A stretch of DNA of 64,000 nucleotides from the NCBI GenBank assembly GCA_020696385.1, contig JAEHCQ010000001.1, positions 288,001 through 352,000 on the forward strand. Reading direction: 5' to 3'. A program made the translations under genes and the position numbers. Origin of the DNA: Methanobacteriota archaeon. Its GTDB lineage: Archaea > Thermoplasmatota > Thermoplasmata > SG8-5 > JAGLSY01. Below the pieces are notes generated by a model, which saw only the letters and a program-made list of their open reading frames with translations, was not told the origin of the DNA and did not search any database. This document shows, piece after piece, positions 4,395 through 41,659 of this stretch (its first letter is position 1; each line of letters starts with the position of its first letter).

Positions 4395-7300
4395 ATGGAT
4401 ATAATGGGCATGCATACAAATAAGAAAATTGGAGCGAGCATATTGATCACCATGATGCTACTGGCATCACTTACAGGACTTATCGGATCAGGTGTTATGG
4501 ATTCGGATCCATTAGTGAGTGCTGAGCCGATCGACCTTTCACGGCAGATAACCTCAGACAGGATACCTATGAAAACTGGAAGCACTGTTTTGGATTCCAC
4601 ACCTGGGATAAGACAACTGACCGAGTACAGAGCGGATTATAAAGCAAGTGAGGGAGAAAATGTCATATTGGCAGCAGCAGAACCTCTGCAAATTAATTCC
4701 TTATTCCCGGATGTGGATACAGGAAGAACCGTTCTGCTTGAGATAGCATCTGGAATTGACAATGGTTCCTTCGTACCAGCGTATCTATATGCAGGTAATC
4801 AGGCCGCGGCTTATTCCAGAAATGATGTCGCACTCATGGAGCTGAACAGCTGGATGGATGGAAATATTGTCGCTGCAACCTACTGGGGATTGCAGGACAA
4901 GGAATTCGCTCCAGGGGAGTTCAATTGGCTTCTTGGAGGAGATCCAGCAGATGATGCCGCCATGAGGGAATATTATACAGCTCCTTATGGTCTGGACACC
5001 TTCCCCGCTTACCTTAATTCAGATACAGCAGGAGATCCAAATGATCTGATGAATGCTGGTGGTTTCGCAATAGACGGTGGATTTGCTGGAAAATACGACG
5101 GCAGTGGTGCTTTTTATTCAGATTGTGATTCAACTTCAACAGGAAGATGGGATGGCGCAGGAGGTGCAGTTCCAGAGTTCATTCAAGATGACCTGGACGC
5201 GAGGATCGCGACACCAAGTGATCTGACAATGACATTGAATGGTTCATATGACGATGTACTTGAGGAGGGAACTTTCTCATTGGCTATATCATCAATTGGG
5301 AACATGGGAGACCTTGGTTATGATTCAAACAAGTTCGTTACCACTTTCTTCATAGTTGATGATTACAACACTGTGGTTACCAGGAACAATGCCCTGGGGC
5401 CAACAGGTCCAGGATACACTGTCAAGGATTATAACATAAGATATTCCATGCAACAGTGGGTGGGAACTGATGAGGCACTTGATGGTTCACTAGACAGCAG
5501 AGGTGAAACGGTAACCTATCAGGACGTGGCCTTCTCCAGGAACCCGACAGTTAGAGCTGCAAATCTCGGCGGAGGGGCGATGCCCGCATGGAACCTGAAT
5601 GAACTGGGTGTCATAGCCGCGATATACGATGAAGAGACAATGGAAGTTCACCAGGCAGTTTACTATGACTTCGCAGACAATACACCAGATATTGCCATTC
5701 AGGCTACAGATGTTTCATACGGTCTACCACCGGTAGCGGTGGTCAATGAGACTGTGTTTGGTCCTACTTCAGTTGGCCAGACTACCTTCAATATAGGGTA
5801 CACTAACATAATCGATTGTACTCTTTACGTTGATGAAGATGAATTCGCTTCAACACCCTTCGACTGGTACAAATTATGGGAGGTCGGAGCTGGTGGCTGG
5901 GATGATTACACATTGGACTATGACACTGGTGACGTTTACCTAGAATACGAATGGTGGGCGGACACATCATACATCCACGGATGGCTCAATTATTCCGCAA
6001 CACCAAATAGTGGAGATATTGTTCCGGTTCACATATCGATCGATAATGCCGGGCGTTCATCTTCAGGATCAAATGTCAATGTAGGTATCTATGATGGAGA
6101 CCCGACCAGTGGTGGTGCTTTATTAGGTACACACGATGCAGGGGTCATGGCCTCTGGATCCACGGTTGATTTCACATATAATTGGGATTCCACAGGATAT
6201 CAGGGATACTACTCACTATGTATAATCCCAGATTATCTGGATGCAATATCCGAGTCAAATGAGAACAATAATATTGCTCCTGTGGACGTGTATATCGCAC
6301 CACCAATGGATGTCGGAGCCTTCGCGATCAGTTCACTGGTCGACCAGGCCACATATGAATGGGGGCCACGAAATATCAATGCCAACATTGGGAACATGGG
6401 AACAACATCTCAAGGACCCTTCCCGGTAAAGATCGAGATCAATCATCTCGGTTCTACCACATACCTACTCAATGATGATTGTGAAAGTGGAATACTACCA
6501 GGTTGGACACCAGATGGACCAGTCGCACCTGGCTGGGATCTAAGAGCTAATGCAGCCAACAGTCCTGCAACATCATGGGACTTCGGAGACGGTAATTATG
6601 GGGCTGGACCGCATGATTATAAACTGGAATTCGGACCTTTCGATCTGACAGGGGCTTTCACAAGTGCGGAATGGAAATGGTTCCATAACTACGATTGGGA
6701 AGCTGGCTGGGACGGTGGAGTTCTGGATGTCAGTGCCGATGGAGCCGCATGGACAAGGGTCGTATCGGCCAATGGCTATGATGCGGCTTTGGGAACTGGA
6801 TACTTCAATCCGATCGATGGAGATGCGGGTTCTGATGCTTTCACTGGGGCCAGTGGAGGATTCGTGGAGGATTCTGTGGATCTGACACCATGGCTTGGTG
6901 ACGGGACAGTCTGGGTAAGATACTGGGCTGGTGCTGATGATTTCGCAGGTGGAGGAACTGGCTGGAATGTCGATGATATCAGAATATCGAAGAAAACTGC
7001 TGCAGGTGGTTCTTTATTCACAGATGTCAAGGACACCACCCTCACACTGGGTCAGGGCGAGGGCGAGGAGATGACCTGGAACTATGACTTCAATGATGAG
7101 GCAGAATACCAGATATCTGTGATGACCATGCTACCAGGAGATGCAGTTGCAACCAACAATGAATCTGTTGTGAACATCTTCACCATGAACAGCATGCCGC
7201 CAGGACCAGCGACCGATGTGGCAACAGAGGTTGGAGGATCAGGCGGAGCCAGTGTGTACCAGCAGACCACGAGCGACATTGCTGTTGAGAACAACGGTGG

Positions 7301-9758
7301 AATCATAGACCATACCCGGACACATATGCCGGTTGACGGAACATCCGAGCAGATCGTGGAAGCAGTAACTCCCCCAACTCCGGATACCTGGAACAACTAC
7401 ACTGTGGCTTCAGATATGGCTGTTGAAGGAACAGTCACAAATGACTGGTCTTTCATCGATGAGAATCCTCCAACAGGAGACACCGAGACCATCGAGGAAG
7501 TACTCGGTCCTGCCTTGGTCAACATTATAAATGGCGAATCCTTTGAATCCGCCTGGCCAGCAGGCTGGACGGTCGGGGGCGCCTGGACAAGAAGTGCCAT
7601 TGTGACACCTCCATATCACTTAACCGTAAATGCGGAGTGTGATCCAGATTCAGGAGCTGGCGACCTCACCACTAATATAATGGACACATCCAGCTACGAC
7701 CCTCTTCAGTTGGATTTCGGATATATCGATTCAGGTGTAGAAGCTGGTGAAGGAACTGTCTGGGCTTACACAAGCACTGCAGGTGGTACATGGGTGCAAC
7801 TTTTAGATGCAAATGGAGCAGCCACGTTCACAAAATACAGTAATACCTGGACCTTTGGAGCAAACCCAGAATATTTCTGGACAGGATTCCAACTTGAATT
7901 CAGGCTGGGCGGTGCACAAGGCAATGACGAATGGGCCATTGATTATGTTTGGCTCAATGGTACGGGCGTCGGCGCACCTTCACTCGAGCACAAGTGGACA
8001 ACCGACAGCATCCCGGCAGGATATGATGCATTGAATCTCTACGTAAGGGGTCTTTCATCAAACCCGGCAGATGATGTCTTCAGTGTGTTCTGGTCAAACG
8101 ATGATGTGTCATACGCAGATACTGGAATCAACATAGACCAGGCTGGAATGTCAACATATCCATCATACAGTTTCCCACTTGGAGAATCTGGGGTATTGTA
8201 CATACAGGTCATTGATGACAATACCGGAGATGCTGTTTTGACAACATGTGAGATCGACTCGATACGGCTTGAGTGGTATGAGAATACAGCAACACCAGCG
8301 TCTTACAGCCTGGAACACCAATGGCAGTTCGAGGACGTAACAGCAGCAGACAGCCACACCTTCCACGCCTTTGTTGGGTGGGATGGTGCAGGAGCGGGCG
8401 ATGATACATTCGCCTACTATGGCTCTGCCACAGGTGCATTCGCAGGTGAGGAATTCCTGATGTTCACGGACACCACAGCGGCAATAGACGAATACACATA
8501 CCCACTGGGTGCCGGATACACTGGTGCTTTCTATGTAATGGTGGAAGATACAGCCACAGGAGATGCTGAAGACACTGTTTACATAGACACGATGTATGTG
8601 GATTCCGCAACCGGCGGTCTTGGAACGGCCAATGATATCGTACTCAGATGGACTCTATCATCAGACGATGGAGCAGGAGCGGACGATGTTATTGGTTATG
8701 ACATCTACAAGGCAGATGCAGCAGTAGGCAACTACTACGAAGGCGCATATGTACTTGAGACAACCATACCCGCTGGCACGAACAACTTTATTGACACCAA
8801 TGAGGCACTGGACCCAGAGAACTGCTGGTACTACGTAGTTGCTACAGATGGCACATACGATAGTGTGGCATCAGGAATCGTGTCCAAGTTCGACACACTG
8901 CCCGCGGCCATAAATGTATTAGCAAACGGAGTGACACCACTCAGTATATCGATAGGAACAGGCATTATCACCCTGACCGCGGATATACTGGACAATACCA
9001 CCATTGACGAGAATGTATTCCCATTCCTGATAGGAGCGGAATGGTTCGACACTACCGATCCGGGTGTTGGTTTGGCCAATGCAATAGCCTCTCCAATTGA
9101 TGTGTTCTGGGATGGACCTCTAGATAGCATATCTGTGGTCATTGATACATCAAGCTGGGGAGCTGGCGATCATATCGTGAGTGTTCGTGGTAGATCACCA
9201 AATGGTTGGGGACCTGTAACTACGGTTACAGTCACCGTATCAGCACCAGAATATCTGATACCTGTGGTAGCTGGATGGAACCTCGTATCGCTTCCATTAT
9301 TGCCTGGAGATACATCTCTGCCAAATGCATTGATGGATATTGACGGAGATACTACCTGGAACATGTTCCATCACTATGATGGAGCTGCAGCCTATCACTG
9401 GAAGACCTACAACTCGGCCTTCCCCGGACTTAACCACAATTACGTGGATGAGGAAATGGGAGCTTGGATATTCGTGGACACTGTGGGAGATGGCTTCATC
9501 AAGGTAACTGGCACAGATCCATCAGGTACTACGATAAACCTGGTGGCTGGCTGGAACATGGTCGGCTTCCCATCGCAGGTCGAGGGATATACCGCAGGTG
9601 ATCTGAAGACGGATTCCGGAGGATTGGTCACATCGGTGGAGCGCTTCAATGGAGCAGCAGCCTATGATATCGAAGTCATGCCGGACATCGACCAATTCCA
9701 GATCGGTGAGGGGTACTGGGTGTTCTCCACAGGAGCATATATCTGGACAATACCTTAG
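4395..9758 (+). CDS. Very large secreted modular protein (degenerate Omp28-like region, CARDB, MAM/immune-inhibitor-A-like sandwiches, FN3-like, C-terminal GWNL domain)
   Basis: Signal peptide; CARDB end motif (ISESNENNNIA); WDFGDGNY...WDGG...GWNVDDI sandwich; WTLSSDDGAGADDV module shared with the S8 protease; C-terminal GWNLVSLP...GWNMVGFP...GEGYWV. ORF track start is 4338; ATG 4395 after GGAGGGAG is preferred. Confidence 0.8.
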   Translation: MDIMGMHTNKKIGASILITMMLLASLTGLIGSGVMDSDPLVSAEPIDLSRQITSDRIPMKTGSTVLDSTPGIRQLTEYRADYKASEGENVILAAAEPLQINSLFPDVDTGRTVLLEIASGIDNGSFVPAYLYAGNQAAAYSRNDVALMELNSWMDGNIVAATYWGLQDKEFAPGEFNWLLGGDPADDAAMREYYTAPYGLDTFPAYLNSDTAGDPNDLMNAGGFAIDGGFAGKYDGSGAFYSDCDSTSTGRWDGAGGAVPEFIQDDLDARIATPSDLTMTLNGSYDDVLEEGTFSLAISSIGNMGDLGYDSNKFVTTFFIVDDYNTVVTRNNALGPTGPGYTVKDYNIRYSMQQWVGTDEALDGSLDSRGETVTYQDVAFSRNPTVRAANLGGGAMPAWNLNELGVIAAIYDEETMEVHQAVYYDFADNTPDIAIQATDVSYGLPPVAVVNETVFGPTSVGQTTFNIGYTNIIDCTLYVDEDEFASTPFDWYKLWEVGAGGWDDYTLDYDTGDVYLEYEWWADTSYIHGWLNYSATPNSGDIVPVHISIDNAGRSSSGSNVNVGIYDGDPTSGGALLGTHDAGVMASGSTVDFTYNWDSTGYQGYYSLCIIPDYLDAISESNENNNIAPVDVYIAPPMDVGAFAISSLVDQATYEWGPRNINANIGNMGTTSQGPFPVKIEINHLGSTTYLLNDDCESGILPGWTPDGPVAPGWDLRANAANSPATSWDFGDGNYGAGPHDYKLEFGPFDLTGAFTSAEWKWFHNYDWEAGWDGGVLDVSADGAAWTRVVSANGYDAALGTGYFNPIDGDAGSDAFTGASGGFVEDSVDLTPWLGDGTVWVRYWAGADDFAGGGTGWNVDDIRISKKTAAGGSLFTDVKDTTLTLGQGEGEEMTWNYDFNDEAEYQISVMTMLPGDAVATNNESVVNIFTMNSMPPGPATDVATEVGGSGGASVYQQTTSDIAVENNGGIIDHTRTHMPVDGTSEQIVEAVTPPTPDTWNNYTVASDMAVEGTVTNDWSFIDENPPTGDTETIEEVLGPALVNIINGESFESAWPAGWTVGGAWTRSAIVTPPYHLTVNAECDPDSGAGDLTTNIMDTSSYDPLQLDFGYIDSGVEAGEGTVWAYTSTAGGTWVQLLDANGAATFTKYSNTWTFGANPEYFWTGFQLEFRLGGAQGNDEWAIDYVWLNGTGVGAPSLEHKWTTDSIPAGYDALNLYVRGLSSNPADDVFSVFWSNDDVSYADTGINIDQAGMSTYPSYSFPLGESGVLYIQVIDDNTGDAVLTTCEIDSIRLEWYENTATPASYSLEHQWQFEDVTAADSHTFHAFVGWDGAGAGDDTFAYYGSATGAFAGEEFLMFTDTTAAIDEYTYPLGAGYTGAFYVMVEDTATGDAEDTVYIDTMYVDSATGGLGTANDIVLRWTLSSDDGAGADDVIGYDIYKADAAVGNYYEGAYVLETTIPAGTNNFIDTNEALDPENCWYYVVATDGTYDSVASGIVSKFDTLPAAINVLANGVTPLSISIGTGIITLTADILDNTTIDENVFPFLIGAEWFDTTDPGVGLANAIASPIDVFWDGPLDSISVVIDTSSWGAGDHIVSVRGRSPNGWGPVTTVTVTVSAPEYLIPVVAGWNLVSLPLLPGDTSLPNALMDIDGDTTWNMFHHYDGAAAYHWKTYNSAFPGLNHNYVDEEMGAWIFVDTVGDGFIKVTGTDPSGTTINLVAGWNMVGFPSQVEGYTAGDLKTDSGGLVTSVERFNGAAAYDIEVMPDIDQFQIGEGYWVFSTGAYIWTIP

Positions 9759-30113: not shown

Positions 30114-30277
30114 ATTATCTGTGAATGGCCACAAAGCATAAATAGGGTATATACGAAAAGATAAATATACTGTTCAGTATTACTGGGCATTATTCATATC
30201 AAGTTTGACAGACATACTGTGAAGTATAGTGGGCATACCCATGGTCATGTTTCGACTTGAATAAAAGGCGGAGGAAA

Positions 30278-31918
30278 ATGGCAGAAGCGGAAACAAGTGG
30301 TAGAATATGCCCCGTGTGCGATGAGAGCGTGCCGCTTGACTCAAAGTCATGTCCTTCCTGCAAGACCGATCTAACACTTTTTCAGGTTGATGGAGAAAGA
30401 GTGGAAATTGGAGAGGATGTCGAGATGGTGGGTCAGATTGACGGCCATATGGGCGACCTTATGAAGGCCGCGAATGGAGATCCTTATGCAACTCAGGCAC
30501 CTCAGGCAACTGCAGAAATGTTCGAATGTCCAGAATGTAATAAATTAATTCCAGAAGATGCCGCTGCTTGCCCAAATTGTGGCGTGGAATTTGCAGATGG
30601 AGATGTCTTCGAATGCCCATTATGCAAAACCCTGGTAGATATCAACACAGATGTGTGCCCCAGCTGTGGAGCGGAGTTTGGAGAGGATGAGGTTGAAGGG
30701 ACCGATGAAGTGGCCACTGAACCCATACCGGAACCAGTTACAGAGCCAATACCAGAGCCTGAGCCAGCAAAGGAACTGAGCTTTGCTGAAAGAATGAAGG
30801 CAATGAAAGAGGGCGGCTCCTCTGAGCCTGCTGCTGTTGCTGATCCCGTGGTCGCAAAAGAACCAGAGCCAGCTCCAGCAAAGGAACTGAGCTTTGCTGA
30901 AAGAATGAAGGCAATGAAAGAGGGAAAAGCACCCGATATCACACACACACCAGAGCCAGTCAAAGCACCAGTGGAAGAGCCAAAGGCGGAGCCAGTAGTA
31001 GAAGAATCGAAACCACAGCCAGTTGTTCAAGATAATATTCCTGCAAAGGTGGAACCAGCCCCGCAGGCACAACCTCAGCCCAGCCCGGAAAAGTCCCAGG
31101 CACCACCTGCGAAAGTGATATCCGCAGAGGACAGAGCCAATCTGAAACAGAAATACAAAGAATTACCAAAGCTCATTGGGGAAGTGAAGAGATATCTCGC
31201 TGTCGCTAAAAGATGCGAGATCAATGTGTCCAAAAGCAGAGGTCTCATTAACCAGGCTGTCGCGGCTGGAAAGAACAAGGATCTGGAAACCGCGGTAAGA
31301 TTGGTCGAAGAGGGAAAGGCAGGAATTAAAAAGATCATCTCCGAGCATATGGAAGAGAAGGTGCAAACTCTCAAGATCAAGGTCGATGAAGCAGCGACCA
31401 GTGGACAAACTTCGCCAATAATCCCAACCAGTATGGCGAAGATCCAGGAAGCTATGTCCGCATATGACTTTGACACTGTCCTTACAGAGGTCGAAAAGAT
31501 AGACTCATTGCTAAAAGAGACCGTGGGCGAAGATGTTCTGGATGCGAAGAGCGTTATCAGAAAAATGGGAATGACCATGGAGGATGCCCATGCGATGAAT
31601 ATCGAGATGGGAGAAGCTCTAAGCCTTTACAATGAGGCAAAGAAGGCTGCGGATAAGGAAGATTGGAACTCGGCCGCCATATTCGCGAAACAAGCCCAGG
31701 ACAGCCTGAATGAGATACTTCCCGTTCATATCAATACAGCCATGAAGAAGGCGAAAACAAGCTTGCTGGAAATAAAGATGATGAACATCGATATCGCCCA
31801 GCCAGTTGAGTTTCTGAAGAAAGCGAATATTGCAATGAAGGATAGGAACTATCCCGAGGCTCTACATTCGGTCAAGGAGTTCAAAGATTACCTTGACAAA
31901 GAGAATTATATTATGTGA
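30278..31918 (+). CDS. Zinc-ribbon (DZR) protein with Pro/Glu-rich linker and helical repeats
   Basis: Six CxxC motifs (three ribbons), a low-complexity linker and a helical C-terminal half. ATG 30278 follows GGAGG; track start is 30257. Confidence 0.8.
   Translation: MAEAETSGRICPVCDESVPLDSKSCPSCKTDLTLFQVDGERVEIGEDVEMVGQIDGHMGDLMKAANGDPYATQAPQATAEMFECPECNKLIPEDAAACPNCGVEFADGDVFECPLCKTLVDINTDVCPSCGAEFGEDEVEGTDEVATEPIPEPVTEPIPEPEPAKELSFAERMKAMKEGGSSEPAAVADPVVAKEPEPAPAKELSFAERMKAMKEGKAPDITHTPEPVKAPVEEPKAEPVVEESKPQPVVQDNIPAKVEPAPQAQPQPSPEKSQAPPAKVISAEDRANLKQKYKELPKLIGEVKRYLAVAKRCEINVSKSRGLINQAVAAGKNKDLETAVRLVEEGKAGIKKIISEHMEEKVQTLKIKVDEAATSGQTSPIIPTSMAKIQEAMSAYDFDTVLTEVEKIDSLLKETVGEDVLDAKSVIRKMGMTMEDAHAMNIEMGEALSLYNEAKKAADKEDWNSAAIFAKQAQDSLNEILPVHINTAMKKAKTSLLEIKMMNIDIAQPVEFLKKANIAMKDRNYPEALHSVKEFKDYLDKENYIM
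30764..30924 (+). repeat. Perfect 50-bp intragenic direct repeat, 2 copies
   Basis: 30764-30813 is identical to 30875-30924; encodes PAKELSFAERMKAMKEG. Confidence 0.95.
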
Positions 31919-31985
31919 GAACCGGACCTCTAGGCCTAAAAGTTCTCAAAATAAATTATTTATTGATACCATATCAATAATCAGA

Positions 31986-34292
31986 TCACATAAAAGATAT
32001 GACTTCCATTTCCCTTTCCAATATCTTAAGGTCCTGTGGGTCAAGTGTGCCAGGTGTCACAGACATCAGGAATATGGAATCACTTTCTGAAACATCATCT
32101 ATCAATCTTCTAAGGAATCTAAGGACAGCATCAAAACTGCTATTGCTTATGAGATATTCCAGGCCATCTATCAAAAGTATGCCTTTCTTGCCAGTATTCA
32201 GAATATCCTCGATCTTGTAAATGATCCTCTCAAGTGCTGGCTGTATCGTGTCCTCCGTGCTTTCCCTGTCAGTCAACCATAATAATTCCGCTTCGCCAAA
32301 ATCATAATCTCCCTTGAGGCGTCGGGGATTGGTCCTGCTTATACACATACCACCATATCCAAGGTCAAGTGTTTCGACAAATATCTCGAAACATTTTTCG
32401 GGACGATCCTCCTCCACCAAATAGCTTCTGGATATCTTCAAACTCTCTGATTTGGCTGTATTATCAAAGATCTCCGCCTCCTTTTCTTTGGGCTCTTCTT
32501 TGACAGGTTCTATATCTTCATCCTTCAGAACAGATTCCGCAAGGGATACGGTCGGGTTTGTGTTCATCAATTCACAATATGCTATGACCTTGTTCAGGGC
32601 TCCTTCGAGGAGTCTCACATTGCTGGTGTATATCTTGGCGATGAATTTCAATACATCATCCCCGATAACAAAACCAGCAACCTCTGACTTTTGCCTCAAT
32701 ATACTAACCCTGGTTTCAAGATCCGGAGCCTGCATATCAGTCACCAGGCCAGATTCAAAACGCGATACAAGTCTATCCTTTAGACCAGATATTTCTTTCA
32801 ATGGGCAGTCACTGGTCATGACTATCTGCTTATCCTCCTTGTGAAGGGCATTGAAGGTATGGAACAGCTCGTCCTGAACGGCTTCCTGATCTGCAATGAA
32901 TTGTATATCGTCTATCAAAAGAATGTCGAGCTTTCGATATCTGCTTCTGAAGGCCTTCATCTTATTGGATTTGGTAGCCTCGATGAATTCCTGCATGAAC
33001 TTCTCAGTGGTTATATAAAGGACCTTTCTGTCCTCATTATTACTGGCCACGTAATTCCCTATGGCATTGATCATGTGGGTCTTACCCAGGCCAACTCCAC
33101 TGCATATCAATAATGGATTGTAAACTGAAGAATCTGCTTTGGCAACAGCCAGTGAAGCTGCTTGTGAGAATCTGCTATTATCCCCGACAACGAAATTCTC
33201 AAAAGTGAATGTGGATATGAGCCCAGTATCCTTTGTCTTGAGGATATCGTCGAGCTTTCCCTTGTCTGTTTTCGCATTCTTGACAGCTCCGCATATTGGA
33301 CATTCATCAAGGCCACCCATTTCTCCACCACAGATACTGCATATATCCTCAGGTTCTCCGGCAGATGTTCTCTTCTTATTCATGACAATGGGGTCTGGCT
33401 CAGGGGTGGATTTGAATACTGGTTCTATGCTGGGAGCAGGTTTCTCAATTACTGGTTTGTCAGCAACCACAGGTTCTGCTTCCATAACCTGTTCTTTCTC
33501 TGGTTCTATGATCTCAGGTTCCACTGGATCATCCAATAGGTGTATCTTATCACTGAGATCCTCCATAGCGGCCTCTATGGCGGTTATCTTCATTGGATTC
33601 ATGAAAAGAGCCTGGAGCTTTTTCACCTCGGTCCCATGACCGATGGTGTCCATACTTTCCAGATCCCCCTTGAAAAATTCTATCTTCTTTATGTTCTCGG
33701 TGAATTCATCAAATATATGTTTCGCATCTACCATCGAGCCTTCAAGAGCATCCTGAAGGTTGTTCACGATATAACCTTCAGATTTCCATCCCTCCATTCT
33801 ATTTTGAAGGGCTTTCAATTCCTTGCTCGAACCTGTTTTCTTTGGTTCTTCATTATTGGTATCTCCCCACGAGATCCCCACTTTAGCTCGTGGTTTTTTC
33901 TTTGCAGATGGTTTCAGAACAGTGATGGAAGATTCTGGATGGGTAGAGATAAACTCATCCACCTCCAATCTACCTCTAACCTCTATCTCGCATTTATCAT
34001 CATAAGAATCCACCCAGGAAAGCTTGAGGGCCTTCTCGCCCTGCTTTGTTATTTGCAGGTCGGATCCGTCTCTTCTACCATAAACTGCTGCTGCTGGCAC
34101 TCCATTCTTGATTATCAGATATCCCTCAGATATCTGCCCATCTCTCTTCAGCATGCTCTTGACATAGCCCGTGAACTCATATTTCTTGAGCTTGATGAGA
34201 CTTTTCTTTAGAGTATCCTCTCCGCCATGGATGGTTCGGATCAACTTGCCCTCGGGCAGGAAATCATTAGACGTTAACAGCACCTCGCTCAA
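31986..34292 (-). CDS. DnaA-like AAA+ ATPase fusion: DUF2226-like, helical, Zn ribbon, DnaA domain III, DUF835
   Basis: aa 357-591: FTFENFVVG, YNPL..SGVGLGKTH, LLIDDIQF, ELFHTFN, TSD, RLVSRFESGL, PDLETR, SNVRLLEGAL. aa ~620-766: SYLVEE, CISRTNP, LWLT, LLIDGLEYLI, ILERE (DUF835 pattern). No domain IV. Confidence 0.88.
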   Translation of the reverse strand: MSEVLLTSNDFLPEGKLIRTIHGGEDTLKKSLIKLKKYEFTGYVKSMLKRDGQISEGYLIIKNGVPAAAVYGRRDGSDLQITKQGEKALKLSWVDSYDDKCEIEVRGRLEVDEFISTHPESSITVLKPSAKKKPRAKVGISWGDTNNEEPKKTGSSKELKALQNRMEGWKSEGYIVNNLQDALEGSMVDAKHIFDEFTENIKKIEFFKGDLESMDTIGHGTEVKKLQALFMNPMKITAIEAAMEDLSDKIHLLDDPVEPEIIEPEKEQVMEAEPVVADKPVIEKPAPSIEPVFKSTPEPDPIVMNKKRTSAGEPEDICSICGGEMGGLDECPICGAVKNAKTDKGKLDDILKTKDTGLISTFTFENFVVGDNSRFSQAASLAVAKADSSVYNPLLICSGVGLGKTHMINAIGNYVASNNEDRKVLYITTEKFMQEFIEATKSNKMKAFRSRYRKLDILLIDDIQFIADQEAVQDELFHTFNALHKEDKQIVMTSDCPLKEISGLKDRLVSRFESGLVTDMQAPDLETRVSILRQKSEVAGFVIGDDVLKFIAKIYTSNVRLLEGALNKVIAYCELMNTNPTVSLAESVLKDEDIEPVKEEPKEKEAEIFDNTAKSESLKISRSYLVEEDRPEKCFEIFVETLDLGYGGMCISRTNPRRLKGDYDFGEAELLWLTDRESTEDTIQPALERIIYKIEDILNTGKKGILLIDGLEYLISNSSFDAVLRFLRRLIDDVSESDSIFLMSVTPGTLDPQDLKILEREMEVISFM

Positions 34293-34383
34293 TGTACATC
34301 ATGCTTCTTATTTAAATAATTATAATATGGATGAGCATCCATTAGACCATAAATTACTGATATCATAGCTTATTCCATCAATA

Positions 34384-37129: not shown

Positions 37130-40100
37130 TCAATATTCGGGAGGTATGACCTCTTCAGGTGAGACCGGAGGAGCTCCCTCTGGAGACATAGGAGGTGCAT
37201 CCTCAGGTGGCATTGAAGTACCATCTGCAGGCTGAGCGACGAATGCCGGCGGTGGTGGAGGAGGTGGTTGTTGGTACTGTTGCTGTGGTGGCTGATTGTT
37301 CTTTTTCACTATTATGACGATGATCAATAAGATGACCATTGCCAGAATTATCAACAATATCCACCACCAGTTCGAAGCACCATTATCGACATCGAGTTCG
37401 ATGGGATCCAGATCATTGGTCTGGCCATCTGAGACCGTGACAGGAATGGTGGTATCGTAATCTCCCTTAGATACCAGAAGATCATGGGTACCAACAGGAA
37501 CATCTAGCAGCTCGAACTCACCATTTTCATCGGTGATCTGTGAATATGTATCGCCATCCACTACGACCTGTACTAGGGCTCCCTCGATAGGGGTGCCATC
37601 AGCATCAATGATCTGGCCTCCGATATCGCCAGTTGGTGGAATGGGTTCATCTTCGGTGGTAAAAGCCCCGATCATATCATTATCCATCTTGTTACCTATC
37701 AGATCTCTGACCGCGCCCTCGAACATCACATTGTATTCCGTACCATAGGACAGCGAGTGATCTGGTGTGAAAGCGACCCTTGAGCCATCGGCATCCCAGA
37801 TGAAGGTTCCTGTGATCGTGTCATCCTCGACAAATACTTCACCATTTTTCCTGTATATCCTCATGCCAGCTTCCACACTGTCACGATCCATTTCTTCATT
37901 GAAAGTGAATGCGATATCGGTATCGACCGAAATATCATCTCCGGATGGAGCTATGGTGACCATGGGGGACTTGGTATCCCAGATCAGAGTGAATTCATCA
38001 TAAGCACTGTTACCCGCAAGGTCAAAGACAGTTAGCCTAATGACAAAGGTACCATCTATGTCGGATCTTATCGTGGTCTTATTATCATCATTAGATCCGA
38101 AATCGATATGATTGGCAAAGCCACTTTCTGTTGTCCAGGAATAGTAATCGATCCCACTGCCATGTTCTATGACCGTACTGAATTGTGTGAACTGCTTGTT
38201 CTCGGTCCTATTGGGTCCTATGTCGATAAATGGGATAACAGTATCCCAAACAAGTATGAAGGAATCAGTGGCATTGTTCCCTTCGAAATCATAGGCCAAG
38301 AAACTTATCTCGTATGTACCATCGATATCAGCTTCCATCTGGGTATACATATTATATGGATCCCAAAAGCTGATGGAACCAGGACCAGATACCTGTGCCC
38401 ATTCATATCCATCAACACCAGATTCTGTATCAATGGCTACACCATATTGTGTAAAAGCCGAGCTCTCCCATCTGTCAGGACCAGCTTCAACATCAGGTGG
38501 TGTCGAGTCCGGGACAAAGGTTGTGAAACTCCATGTATGAGTTGGAGGTGAATTTCCATAGATATTTGTGCCCCCACTTACCCGCATGCCGATCGTCTCG
38601 GCATATGTCCAATCACTGTGGGTCCAGGTAGCAGTATCAGACACTACATTGGTGGTGGACCAGCCCGAGAATGACCAGCCACCTGGATCAGTACCTGAGG
38701 TCTGTACCAATGCAGGATTCGAACCTGTGTTCATAGTCCCATCATATACGACACTGACACTCTGGTCAATAGCAATTCCAGCGGAGCCGCTAGCTGGGGT
38801 AGTGGATATCACCTCTGGAATTGGATGTCCAACATAGACATCGTCAATATGCCAGTAATCCATACCAGCACCGCTACCACCAGTCTGTGAGAATCTGAGT
38901 TGGAAAGATGAGTGTATGGCATCAGCAGAAAGGAGATAAGTACGATCATACGTCGCCCCCTCGGATGCTCCACCGAAGAATGTCTCCAGCCATACCCATG
39001 TTCCAATATCATTCATATAATACAGTTCAAGGTCTTCGCCGCCATCGGGGTTCTCACTGAAAATACCACTGCCTTCCTGTATCCAACATTCTACTTCCAC
39101 TATTGAAAGGCCGGATGTGTCAATGAACCAGGAATCCACATTTACCAATCCACCTGACGTGTACATTGACCATGATCCAGAGTTCGAGATCTGGGTTCCA
39201 ACTCCTGAGAATGTGGGATTATCCGATGTCCAGTTCAAACCAGTGCTACCACCGAATACACCGAACTCAAAGTCATCAAGCCATGGAGCTGTGAAAAATA
39301 CGTCTGTGGTTATCTGTGCCGTATCCAATCTCATGGAATCATTCTGAGAGATAATAGTTATGAGAGAAGTGTTTGAATCACCTGGAATCGCACCCCCTGG
39401 AATAGTAACACGGACAATTACCTGGACTGATGCATTGACCGGTACCATGACATTGGATATGTCCATGGTATCTGCCGCGTTCCTGAGAGTCACTGGCCAT
39501 GTACTTCCAGATACTGAAAGATTGTATGTGTCATTTAATAATCCAGTATTTGTGATCGTTATAGTGTAATCCAATACGCCACCTGCCGAAGATGCGTCAG
39601 TTTGGTAACTGGGGGATACATCCAATCGGTATGGTGGTGTGACATTACCATTGAGAAGCCAGTATATGATATCATCCAGAAGCACAGCCCTATCACCTGT
39701 GCTATCATCAACAGCAGTCAGATCAAAGGCCGTGTATACCACCCTGTAAGTTCCTGTATCCGCCCTGGTCGCGATATTTGCAGTGGATGTGGTAGTGAAT
39801 ATTGTATGACCATCATTTATAGGATCATTATCTGTCCTGTATGCCCATATACCTGGATTGACAGTACCTTGATCCCCAAGGTATGTGTCATTATCCGTGA
39901 TGATGTCTCCTGGAACACCATTTATAGTGAAAGGGGAAGCTGTGTTTCCCTCAAAAGCAAGGTAATTCGAATGCAGATAGGTATTGTACCAGGGTGTCCA
40001 CGTAGCTCCATTAACAGAATCATAACCTGCCAGACAACTGGATAAATACAATTTACCACCAGCATCCAGATATGTTCCGATATTGGCTCTATCGGTCGGA

Positions 40101-41659
40101 CTGAAAGTTCCGTCATTTGGGGATACCGCACTATCATCATAGGAATTACCTGTTGCCCAGATAATTATCTCATAGACGAGTAAGTCAGCCGCAGATGGAA
40201 CTCCATCGACCGCGTATTCCCACACATCGTAGGAATAACCTGTCGAATCCAATGCAGCCATTATCTCGACCTCCGTATTTAGGCTAGTGATCGCACCACC
40301 ATCATCATCCACATACAGTATCATTCCAGGAACAATCGTCATGATCATTTCCATATCAGATATAGTACTGTTACCCTGAGAAGTGGCTGTTATATTGGCA
40401 TAGTCTATATCTCCTTTAGCTGCCGCGCCCGGTATGTTCACGCGAGCGATGAATTGTGAATTATTACCAGCAGATATGGAAATAGTGGTTATATTTATTG
40501 TATCGCCGGCATCGCGGAATATCACTGGCCATGAATTATTCTGCGCAGATAGATCATAGGTATCATTGCTCGACCCATTGTTCCATATTATGAATCCATA
40601 ATCTGCAGAGGCACCAGGACTTTCCCGTTGAATGGTTGATGTAACCGGAGTCATATCGAAATCATAAGGAGGCAATGCCTGTGTCTGTATCTGGACCATA
40701 TCAGAATCAGTAGTATTACCCTGTGATGTGGCTGTTATGAACGCTGCATCCACTTGCCAGGACGTAGCTCCACCTGGGATGCTCACACGGGCAATGAAGC
40801 TGCCAGTGCTTCCATTTGTTATAAAAATATTAGATATATTAGTGGTGTCGCCAATGTCCCTGAATATTACAGGCCATGCGTTTCCACCTACTGAAAGATT
40901 ATAAGTGTCATTGCTTGTGCCGATATTATCGATGCTGAGAATATGATCCACATCTGATCCTGGACCACCGGCAGCACTTTGGAGATCGGGGTATAGATCC
41001 AAGGAAAAGGCAGGAGGTGGCCCTACATATACATCGTCTATATGCCAGTAATCAAAACTTCCCCCACTTCCACCTGTTTGGTAGAATCTTATTTGGAAAT
41101 TTGAATGGCAGGCATCTAATGGCAATATATGATCCACATTATAGACAGTACCAGGAGCGTCCACATTGCCAAAGAAAGTATCCAGCAAGACCCATGAAGA
41201 TACATTGTTAAGATAATATATTTCAATATTCTCGGTAAGTGTATCTGGAGCTTCGCTTCCCCCAAAGGCCCCTCCTTTACGAATGTAGCAGCTGAATGAG
41301 ATGTTGAGATAGGCACTCGTATCTATACTGGAAGAATTCAATGTAACTGTTCCACCCTGTGTGTACATGGAGTAAATGCCTGACTGGGATGTTGATGTAT
41401 CCACACCATAAGTTCCTGTGCCAAGTACACCGGTCCAGTTGAACCCCGTACTTCCACCGAAGTTACCGGTTTCAAAATCATCCAGCCAAGGAATAGGAAA
41501 AGCCATAGGGGATCCGGCATTACCATTGTCTTGAGAAATCGTATTGCCTGAATATCCCGCCATGATAGGTCCCGCGCTCATGAGGAGCAATAACCCTACC
41601 AGTAGAACCGAAATCATTCCCCTAACTTGCCCACTTTTCATATTATCGAATGAACTCAT
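37130..41659 (-). CDS. Large membrane-anchored surface protein with repeated beta-sandwich and Ig-like modules
   Basis: Signal peptide; 2x PWLDDFE...YWHIDDVYVG; 3x NDTY.LS...WPV..R modules; PKD-like, Big_5-like and carboxypeptidase-regulatory-like modules; C-terminal TM helix and P/Q-rich tail. Confidence 0.82.
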   Translation of the reverse strand: MSSFDNMKSGQVRGMISVLLVGLLLLMSAGPIMAGYSGNTISQDNGNAGSPMAFPIPWLDDFETGNFGGSTGFNWTGVLGTGTYGVDTSTSQSGIYSMYTQGGTVTLNSSSIDTSAYLNISFSCYIRKGGAFGGSEAPDTLTENIEIYYLNNVSSWVLLDTFFGNVDAPGTVYNVDHILPLDACHSNFQIRFYQTGGSGGSFDYWHIDDVYVGPPPAFSLDLYPDLQSAAGGPGSDVDHILSIDNIGTSNDTYNLSVGGNAWPVIFRDIGDTTNISNIFITNGSTGSFIARVSIPGGATSWQVDAAFITATSQGNTTDSDMVQIQTQALPPYDFDMTPVTSTIQRESPGASADYGFIIWNNGSSNDTYDLSAQNNSWPVIFRDAGDTINITTISISAGNNSQFIARVNIPGAAAKGDIDYANITATSQGNSTISDMEMIMTIVPGMILYVDDDGGAITSLNTEVEIMAALDSTGYSYDVWEYAVDGVPSAADLLVYEIIIWATGNSYDDSAVSPNDGTFSPTDRANIGTYLDAGGKLYLSSCLAGYDSVNGATWTPWYNTYLHSNYLAFEGNTASPFTINGVPGDIITDNDTYLGDQGTVNPGIWAYRTDNDPINDGHTIFTTTSTANIATRADTGTYRVVYTAFDLTAVDDSTGDRAVLLDDIIYWLLNGNVTPPYRLDVSPSYQTDASSAGGVLDYTITITNTGLLNDTYNLSVSGSTWPVTLRNAADTMDISNVMVPVNASVQVIVRVTIPGGAIPGDSNTSLITIISQNDSMRLDTAQITTDVFFTAPWLDDFEFGVFGGSTGLNWTSDNPTFSGVGTQISNSGSWSMYTSGGLVNVDSWFIDTSGLSIVEVECWIQEGSGIFSENPDGGEDLELYYMNDIGTWVWLETFFGGASEGATYDRTYLLSADAIHSSFQLRFSQTGGSGAGMDYWHIDDVYVGHPIPEVISTTPASGSAGIAIDQSVSVVYDGTMNTGSNPALVQTSGTDPGGWSFSGWSTTNVVSDTATWTHSDWTYAETIGMRVSGGTNIYGNSPPTHTWSFTTFVPDSTPPDVEAGPDRWESSAFTQYGVAIDTESGVDGYEWAQVSGPGSISFWDPYNMYTQMEADIDGTYEISFLAYDFEGNNATDSFILVWDTVIPFIDIGPNRTENKQFTQFSTVIEHGSGIDYYSWTTESGFANHIDFGSNDDNKTTIRSDIDGTFVIRLTVFDLAGNSAYDEFTLIWDTKSPMVTIAPSGDDISVDTDIAFTFNEEMDRDSVEAGMRIYRKNGEVFVEDDTITGTFIWDADGSRVAFTPDHSLSYGTEYNVMFEGAVRDLIGNKMDNDMIGAFTTEDEPIPPTGDIGGQIIDADGTPIEGALVQVVVDGDTYSQITDENGEFELLDVPVGTHDLLVSKGDYDTTIPVTVSDGQTNDLDPIELDVDNGASNWWWILLIILAMVILLIIVIIVKKNNQPPQQQYQQPPPPPPPAFVAQPADGTSMPPEDAPPMSPEGAPPVSPEEVIPPEY

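Follow-up and report, generated by a model that had tools for sequence, protein, structure and literature searches.

In the accessible part of a 2025 opinion on archaeal replication initiation, DnaA is treated as bacterial only (PMC11880632). The described systems closest to the protein reported here are bacterial DnaA itself, the helper ATPases Hda and DnaC/IstB, the archaeal response regulators that end in DUF835, and FlaH/ArlH, the KaiC-like motor protein of the archaellum. The protein, 768 amino acids (aa) long, is encoded by what will be called the DnaA-DUF835 gene. This gene lies in a 64,000-nucleotide stretch of contig JAEHCQ010000001.1 from a Methanobacteriota archaeon (Thermoplasmatota; Thermoplasmata), the whole of which is referred to as the window. 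On balance, the protein is probably an ATP-gated oligomerising switch within a two-gene module of Thermoplasmata, and not an initiator.

With DnaA of Bacillus subtilis, the 768-aa protein shares the AAA+ initiator-clade fold, the Walker A and B motifs, sensor I, the two box VII arginines and sensor II. Unlike bacterial DnaA, it is without domain I, domain IV and DnaA-box binding, it carries archaeal domains on both flanks, four of nine positions that contact single-stranded DNA (ssDNA) are different, and its host already owns Orc1/Cdc6. Hda and the DnaC/IstB ATPases resemble it in being DnaA-clade AAA+ modules that lack domain IV and serve as regulators or loaders. However, the archaeal sequence is much closer to DnaA proper. 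It scores far under the family cut-offs of Hda (82.3 bits against 194.8 for TIGR03420) and IstB (200 for NF038214; the Pfam match to IstB is weak, 37.4 bits), and no clamp- or helicase-binding N-terminus was identified in it.

DUF835 was described by Galperin et al. 2018 (PMC5847659) under the label 'iKaiC'. In the accessible text of that paper, it is the output domain of archaeal response regulators (REC-DUF835) and stands at the terminus of multidomain proteins of the signalling type in Methanomicrobia and Thermoplasmata. Those regulators join a receiver to DUF835, whereas here it is joined by a DnaA ATPase and an unassigned N-terminal domain. The DUF835 part superposes on FlaH but is without a Walker A loop, and no archaellum genes lie near the DnaA-DUF835 gene.

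No paper pairing 'DnaA' with 'DUF835' was found; the word DnaA is absent from Galperin et al., and no archaeal DnaA homologue is mentioned in the accessible portions of PMC3984812, the Ori-Finder-Arch preprint and PMC11706807. Nor was a description of the DnaA-DUF835 architecture found in the literature covered, from which Makarova et al. 2017 and supplementary files, where a mention is possible, were outside the scope. The description appears to be new; the sequences are already in databases under automatic names.

The DnaA core and its archaeal flanks

From the N- to the C-terminus, the order of domains is N-domain, helical bundles, zinc ribbon, DnaA domain III and DUF835:

31986..34292, minus strand: DnaA-DUF835 gene, 768 codons and a stop (open reading frame list, translation)
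33918..34265, minus strand: N-terminal beta-rich domain (N-domain), aa 10-125, no family assigned
33531..33827, minus strand: helical region of about two three-helix bundles with a W-x3-G-Y-x-V motif, aa 156-254 (model)
33288..33341, minus strand: zinc ribbon CxxC-x11-CxxC, aa 318-335, in a disordered linker (from the sequence)
32520..33224, minus strand: DnaA-type AAA+ domain III (IIIa and the lid IIIb), aa 357-591, all catalytic motifs intact (Pfam, PDB phmmer, model)
31989..32426, minus strand: DUF835, a FlaH/KaiC-like RecA fold without a Walker A loop, aa 623-768 (Pfam, model)

The first-pass annotation had read the centre of the protein as a complete DnaA domain III on the strength of five quoted motifs, all of which are found in the translation. 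Pfam places Bac_DnaA (PF00308) at aa 360-519 (E = 2.8e-61). In a phmmer search of the PDB, B. subtilis DnaA (8bv3/8btg) aligned without a gap over aa 360-591 (232 residues, E = 1.5e-77), the initiator-specific helices included, followed by the DnaAs of T. maritima (1.2e-62) and A. aeolicus (1.1e-38). Two AlphaFold2 models were made, each on a 54-row alignment: one of aa 1-345 and one of aa 341-768, with a mean predicted local distance difference test (pLDDT) of 80.8 and 91.0, respectively. Residues 17-251 of the second superpose on 8bv3 with a Z of 31.1 and a root-mean-square deviation (rmsd) of 1.3 Å over 235 residues, at 54% identity.

Motif residues were counted in an alignment of 114 relatives of 600-800 aa, out of 121 collected. 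Walker A (GLGKTH) and the two aspartates of Walker B are present in all 114, as is R507 of box VII; R511 is kept in 112, and the aspartate of sensor I and the arginine of sensor II in 113 each. It had been proposed earlier that the protein is an 'ATP-gated oligomerising switch or ssDNA sensor', and the near-complete conservation of Walker, sensor and arginine-finger residues speaks for the first half of that proposal.

The absence of domains I and IV, also claimed before, agrees with Pfam, in which neither DnaA_N nor Bac_DnaA_C matched the protein at E <= 1. Without domain IV, origin recognition is impossible in the way of DnaA. A true initiator, acting as a DnaA-type replacement of Orc1/Cdc6 or in addition to it, is what several databases imply by name: relatives at JGI are called 'chromosomal replication initiator protein DnaA', and the NCBIfam equivalog TIGR00362 matches aa 348-630 with 331.7 bits, near its cut-off. 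That score is nevertheless under the cut-off of 343.9, and the match covers positions 94-371 of the 437 in the profile, which is domain III alone. Two Orc1/Cdc6 genes lie elsewhere in the source genome (423.8 and 256.6 bits against a curated cut-off of 181.3), next to a single Bac_DnaA match. In addition, the modelled C-terminus is FlaH-like, replication genes are not conserved near the gene in 12 related loci, and forms without DnaA exist. An initiator is therefore very improbable, and the DnaA core almost certainly serves something other than the start of replication here, as had been argued from the sequence at the outset. The score just under the cut-off, together with the DnaA names in the records, means that surveys could wrongly report DnaA-dependent replication in Thermoplasmatota.

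At the C-terminus, Pfam finds DUF835 (PF05763) at aa 629-762 (E = 2.4e-26; 92.5 bits against a gathering threshold of 33.1; profile positions 3-136 of 136). Residues 269-428 of the second model superpose on FlaH 4yds with a Z of 15.5 and an rmsd of 3.3 Å over 151 residues, and on 4wia with a Z of 14.5. A weak FlaH match (7e-4) was also obtained in NCBIfam. The model thus answers in the negative the question of whether the C-terminus might fold as the helix-turn-helix (HTH) of DnaA domain IV. The loop past the first DUF835 strand has the family consensus E-E-x-R-P and no G-K-[ST], and the strand equivalent to Walker B closes with an aspartate. With its P-loop gone and the aspartate in place, the DUF835 part fits the label 'iKaiC', an inactivated KaiC-like domain, as far as the accessible text of PMC5847659 defines it. 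The active KaiC family (PF06745) is not among the Pfam matches of the protein at E <= 1. The source genome holds five DUF835 genes and 27 KaiC-family matches, so that the KaiC/DUF835 setting suggested before is plausible. Two DUF835 genes stand in tandem on contig C22 of the source genome, G000 (97442-99605; loci L121 and L124), in frames of 461 and 597 aa whose C-termini look TPR-like by eye.

The N-terminal half is less easily placed. The N-domain is modelled with a pLDDT above 90 over aa 11-120, and there is no Pfam match for aa 1-130 at E <= 10. Compared with solved structures, the N-terminal half gave a best E of 0.08 in Foldseek, with nothing at or below 0.001; against 48,161 chains (VIA), it gave a best Z of 7.0, to generic helical bundles (EzrA 5.9), and at most 5.6 for the N-domain. 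The DUF2226-like assignment made from the sequence could not be confirmed: DUF2226 (PF09987) has no match in the source genome (E <= 1) or in 401 Thermoplasmatota genomes (E <= 1e-5). A language-model look-up did return DUF2226 clusters for the N-domain (0.88; 173 of 256 shared features), which is under the tool's line of 0.9 and serves as a lead only. A resemblance to PatA_N was considered as well. The language-model atlas gave a PatA_N cluster at 0.84, in which 12% of the members carry the family, again a lead only; the profile search did not confirm it, as PatA_N/DUF4388 (PF14332) has no match in the source genome at E <= 1.

An exhaustive phmmer search of 1.84 billion representatives found the N-domain in just 74 proteins at E <= 0.001. 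Ten of the longer ones were examined with Pfam: six carry Bac_DnaA and three DUF835, two end in a double zinc ribbon and one in an HTH. Two of the three with DUF835 have no DnaA and consist of N-domain and DUF835 (346 and 480 aa). Across proteins, the N-domain is thus fused to DnaA domain III, DUF835, coiled coils and zinc ribbons; one paralogue in the source genome has an N-domain followed by a long coiled coil.

In the helical region, the model has helices at aa 156-171, 177-183, 187-213, 220-229 and 233-254, mostly with a pLDDT above 90, and it is this region that produced the generic bundle matches with the best Z of 7.0. W169, G173 and V176 are nearly invariant among relatives. The region is also present in a 459-aa paralogue of the source genome (contig C22:164942-167050; L131), where it is 31% identical over aa 143-246 of the 768-aa protein and retains W-x3-G-Y-x-V. 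The C-terminus of this paralogue resembles a roadblock-like alpha/beta domain by eye and has no Pfam match. Its gene is preceded on the same strand, at a distance of about 40 bp, by a KaiC-family gene with a 256-aa frame. The two source-genome paralogues of the N-terminal regions have no Pfam match at E <= 1. The zinc ribbon, also claimed before, is modelled with a pLDDT of about 73-87; 44 of the 114 relatives have all four cysteines, and 70 do not have the ribbon.

An assembly chimera or a decaying pseudogene was also weighed, as the source genome is a draft of 50 contigs. However, the order of domains is repeated in 117 of the 120 best relatives listed, which stem from several independent sources; the frame, which begins with TTG, stays open across 768 codons with its catalytic residues invariant; GC content is flat along the gene, domain junctions included (0.41-0.47); and both models are confident. 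The gene is not a misassembly, and the conservation of the architecture in relatives refutes an artefact, whose probability is negligible.

A convergent partner gene and forms without the ATPase

Tail-to-tail with the DnaA-DUF835 gene lies a second gene:

30257..31918, plus strand: convergent partner gene, 553 aa, with zinc ribbons (DZR), a Pro/Glu-rich linker with short helical repeats and a helical domain of about 250 aa

The zinc ribbons match Pfam DZR at 1.3e-11. The helical domain matches no family or solved structure; a profile search of the PDB returned zinc-finger matches only. Nine close relatives were found by a word-based homologue search, the two named ones being called 'hypothetical protein', and the atlas placed the partner among hypothetical Thermoplasmatota clusters, with an EzrA lead (0.79) that is not relied on. 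In its linker (about aa 165-240), two near-identical 14-residue copies of E-L-S-F-A-E-R-M-K-A-M-K-E-G were noticed, with related copies in homologues.

Of 12 related loci, 10 have the partner beside the DnaA-like gene in this tail-to-tail arrangement, and no other neighbour recurs. Its helical domain occurs at E < 1e-30 only in six single genomes (G000, G383, G230, G314, G389 and G096) and in all six genomes of family f8 among the 401 Thermoplasmatota genomes. In f8, the partner is again convergent, 6-12 bp from a gene for an N-domain plus DUF835 protein of about 356 aa, which has neither helical bundles nor a DnaA module. This pairing is found in all six genomes, at three loci by sequence and in the remaining three as inferred from coordinates. 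The f8 protein is 31% identical to the 768-aa protein in the N-domain (E from 4e-12 to 8e-08) and 44-49% identical in DUF835. In the window, the gap between the convergent stop codons is 67 bp (31919-31985). With gaps this short, the two transcripts may overlap at their 3' ends.

A DUF835 tree of 48 rows, rooted on the paralogues of the source genome, places the DnaA-less f8 proteins inside a starred clade of DnaA-bearing ones and nests a second DnaA-less protein beside the clade of the 768-aa protein; it is a quick tree from a short search and has long branches. The simplest reading would be that the middle part was lost twice. With DnaA-less forms branching at two points among those that bear DnaA, the ATPase looks accessory rather than core. 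A tie between the presence of the partner and the helical-bundle region was considered and dropped, since the N-terminus of the G383 protein is divergent and its partner is kept, and two forms with the N-domain have no partner. The zinc ribbon of the partner shares 46-52% identity with the ribbon at the C-terminus of long paralogues with a DnaA module, which constitutes a fusion-type link between the two gene families. Complex prediction of partner aa 292-553 with aa 8-258 and with aa 352-768 gave 0.00 for both against a mark of 0.32, was run with no controls and is evidence neither way.

The conserved unit would accordingly be a convergent pair, [N-domain ... DUF835] and [zinc ribbon ... helical domain]. 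An insert in the first gene would comprise the DnaA ATPase and the helical bundles, its catalytic residues kept where it is present and the insert itself dispensable for the pair, and the DnaA-DUF835 gene would be the ATPase-bearing form of the core protein of the module. As judged from its residues, the module may bind ATP and form head-to-tail oligomers, in which, as in filaments of DnaA, the box VII arginine of one protomer would complete the ATP site of the adjacent protomer; hydrolysis of ATP would dismantle them. Through assembly and disassembly, the protein might then control how its N-domain and DUF835 ends engage their partners, for which the zinc-ribbon/helical neighbour and perhaps KaiC-family ATPases are candidates. 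We infer four of these steps: ATP binding, oligomers joined by the arginine finger, contact with the neighbour and the link to KaiC/DUF835.

AAA+ and STAND-like ATPases with variable termini and shuffled architectures are common in defence. The DnaA-DUF835 protein might be the NTPase sensor of an anti-virus system; weak PADLOC matches were found (mad8 9.2e-05, DrmD 0.0016). However, these are generic P-loop matches, and PADLOC gave none for the partner. The gene is single-copy here, its flanks carry genes of a housekeeping kind (PAC2 family, GTP cyclohydrolase FolE2), the surroundings differ from locus to locus with the partner constant, and Pfam scans of the protein and its neighbours found no nuclease or other effector domain. 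A role in defence is improbable.

Residues that contact single-stranded DNA

In B. subtilis DnaA, Lys222, which is called essential, and Glu223 contact phosphate; bases are captured by Arg202, Glu228, Asn187 and Glu183, flanked by Ile190 and Ile193 (PMC10721633, accessible part). In the accessible part of PMC8235120, the equivalents of E. coli V211 and K243 are conserved ssDNA residues. The gapless alignment allows positions to be transferred by adding 247 to the B. subtilis number, and residues were counted in 73 bacterial DnaAs and the 114 archaeal relatives. T225, which we take to be a contact as well, was included on account of its conservation in bacteria and of the Aquifex structure.

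E183: bacteria 73/73, relatives 103/114; E430 in the 768-aa protein
N187: bacteria 73/73, relatives 38/114; Q434
I190: bacteria 70/73, relatives 33/114; I437
I193: bacteria 69/73, relatives 4/114; T440
R202: bacteria 72/73, relatives 113/114; R449
K222: bacteria 71/73, relatives 15/114 (plus 9 with Arg); Q469
E223: bacteria 71/73, relatives 46/114; E470
T225: bacteria 70/73, relatives 4/114; V472
E228: bacteria 73/73, relatives 114/114; E475

Of these nine contacts, which belong to the ISM and the B-motif, four are altered in the 768-aa protein (N187 to Q, I193 to T, K222 to Q and T225 to V), and these positions are mostly altered across its clade. In this clade the catalytic and oligomerisation residues are strictly constrained and the DNA-contact surface is relaxed. 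Canonical DnaA-style capture of ssDNA is unlikely there, and the ssDNA-sensor half of the earlier proposal is weakened.

The protein may instead act on DNA, as an ATP-dependent factor that binds ssDNA or melts DNA in replication restart, repair or chromosome organisation. A DnaA filament and zinc ribbons would then do the work, with the N-domain and DUF835 as regulators. Such a role would suit the initiator-specific helices kept in the gapless alignment, the base-capture residues R449 (R202; 113/114) and E475 (E228; 114/114), the zinc ribbons ahead of domain III and in the partner, the paralogues of other Thermoplasmatota classes that keep all nine contacts, and the one N-domain relative that ends in an HTH. 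However, the conservation of R202 and E228 may be structural, and the phosphate-binding lysine called essential in the accessible part of PMC10721633 is a glutamine here and a lysine in just 15 of 114 relatives. Isoleucine at the position of Ile193 and threonine at that of Thr225 are each kept in four of 114, the zinc ribbon is absent in 70, and the DnaA module was apparently lost twice with the rest of the system retained. A DNA-acting role is possible but doubtful.

Several observations nevertheless weigh against a protein-directed switch. Five of the nine contacts are retained in the 768-aa protein itself (E430, I437, R449, E470 and E475), and the K222 position holds lysine or arginine in 24 of the 114 relatives. 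Open reading frames (ORFs) L094, L098, L099, L105 and L106 from other classes retain nine of nine contacts and L100 eight; L094 and L098 are DUF835-bearing paralogues. With such paralogues, a DNA-linked role, also an ancestral one, stays open. Two related loci are without the partner, both with the 611-616-aa form of the protein. Oligomerisation, ATPase activity and partner binding are argued from residues and gene order, and the limits of the DUF835 tree and of the domain III tree described below count in the same direction. What probability remains falls to something that has not been thought of.

Distribution, origin and surroundings

Among the 120 best relatives listed in a word-indexed search, the 117 with both PF00308 and PF05763 have lengths of 491-850 aa and were drawn from assemblies at NCBI, JGI, ENA and Logan; of the remaining three, two are shorter entries. 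Besides the JGI name given above, relatives are called 'DnaA/Hda family protein [Thermoplasmata archaeon]' or 'hypothetical protein'. The distribution was surveyed in 401 species-level Thermoplasmatota genomes with two or three candidates scored per genome, so that all counts are lower bounds. At E <= 1e-30, the family profile matches in at least 73 genomes, some of them through DUF835 alone. The match covers the DnaA part in at least 45, and DnaA and DUF835 share a single frame in at least 12 to 15. Among the genomes searched in families f5 (0/26), f15 (0/36) and f23 (0/53), none showed the DnaA module, and two of the 48 genomes of f2 matched through the DUF835 part alone.

Ten ORFs of different sizes were examined with Pfam, all of which contain Bac_DnaA, four DUF835 and none Bac_DnaA_C or DnaA_N. 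In the survey, the DnaA module was found with an N-terminal region and DUF835; between HEAT repeats and DUF835 followed by a zinc ribbon; between a long coiled coil and a double zinc ribbon; and in proteins of about 430-440 aa, which are common in family f26 (profile match in 23 of 24 genomes). Seven of nine ORFs of this last kind (L111-L119) start with G-[LIF]-[LI]-[DE]-W-[FI]-[KR], then a run of Lys/Arg. This N-terminus looks amphipathic and possibly membrane-binding. The linker of the partner protein has a similar short motif.

To place the origin of the module, one genome per prokaryote species was scanned. The best 80 of 597 relatives comprised seven archaeal loci and 73 bacterial dnaA genes from Bacillota, Chloroflexota and six more phyla, 43-55% identical in domain III. 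A quick maximum-likelihood tree of domain III was built from 141 rows, namely these 73 bacterial sequences, 30 archaeal loci, every third family member and the 768-aa protein. All bacteria fall on one side of a single branch with a Shimodaira-Hasegawa-like approximate likelihood ratio test (SH-aLRT) support of 92, and the DnaA-DUF835 clade of the source class forms 44 rows with a support of 88, in a tree that is unrooted, comes from a short search and has a bacterial sample biased to the nearest DnaAs. The topology fits one transfer, then a radiation. In PDB phmmer, B. subtilis DnaA scores 264 bits against the 768-aa protein and 136 against Aquifex DnaA; with the archaeal protein the closer of the two, the archaeal set would lie inside bacterial diversity.

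A broader history can be imagined on this basis, in which an ancestor within Thermoplasmatota took up the initiator ATPase core once and its descendants radiated into ATP-driven filament formers. The deeper members (the long coiled-coil, HEAT and ~430-aa f26 proteins), which keep the bacterial ssDNA-capture residues entirely or with conservative changes only, would go on stretching or melting DNA alongside Orc1/Cdc6. The 768-aa protein would be a derived form whose switch has turned from DNA to protein partners. We regard this history as unlikely; if it is true, archaea would possess a second activity that opens DNA in a DnaA-like manner.

The ATPase at the centre of the bacterial initiator has crossed domains and has long been kept with its catalytic residues intact. 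It is now seen in at least five architectures and at least 45 of the 401 sampled genomes. If the DnaA-DUF835 protein is the switch proposed above, such proteins are natural constructs in which the ATP-dependent self-assembly of DnaA is split from origin recognition. Since the loss of ssDNA contacts is graded within one family, the question of a DnaA filament without DNA boxes becomes directly testable. They also offer a first handle on DUF835 proteins and on the uncharacterised zinc-ribbon/helical partner.

One further element was noted by eye upstream of the gene:

34309..34316, minus strand: TATA-like AT-rich box, about 20 nt 5' of the TTG start

It is possibly the gene's own promoter, in which case the leader would be short or absent. 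Upstream on the same strand, the gene is flanked in the window by one for a PAC2-family protein; other flanking genes encode GTP cyclohydrolase FolE2, a TPR protein, an Fe-S/CCG protein and a large surface protein. None of these recurs across the 12 related loci. At L129 in G096, a locus without the zinc-ribbon/helical partner, two Ras/Rab-like small GTPase genes with a shared C-terminal extension (6732-9353) lie directly downstream of the 611-aa DnaA-DUF835 gene on the same strand. The large surface protein of the window (37130-41659, minus strand) is predicted from 1509 aa with Big_5 Ig-like, carboxypeptidase-regulatory-like and reelin-subrepeat-like domains, a membrane anchor at the C-terminus and a tail rich in Pro/Gln.

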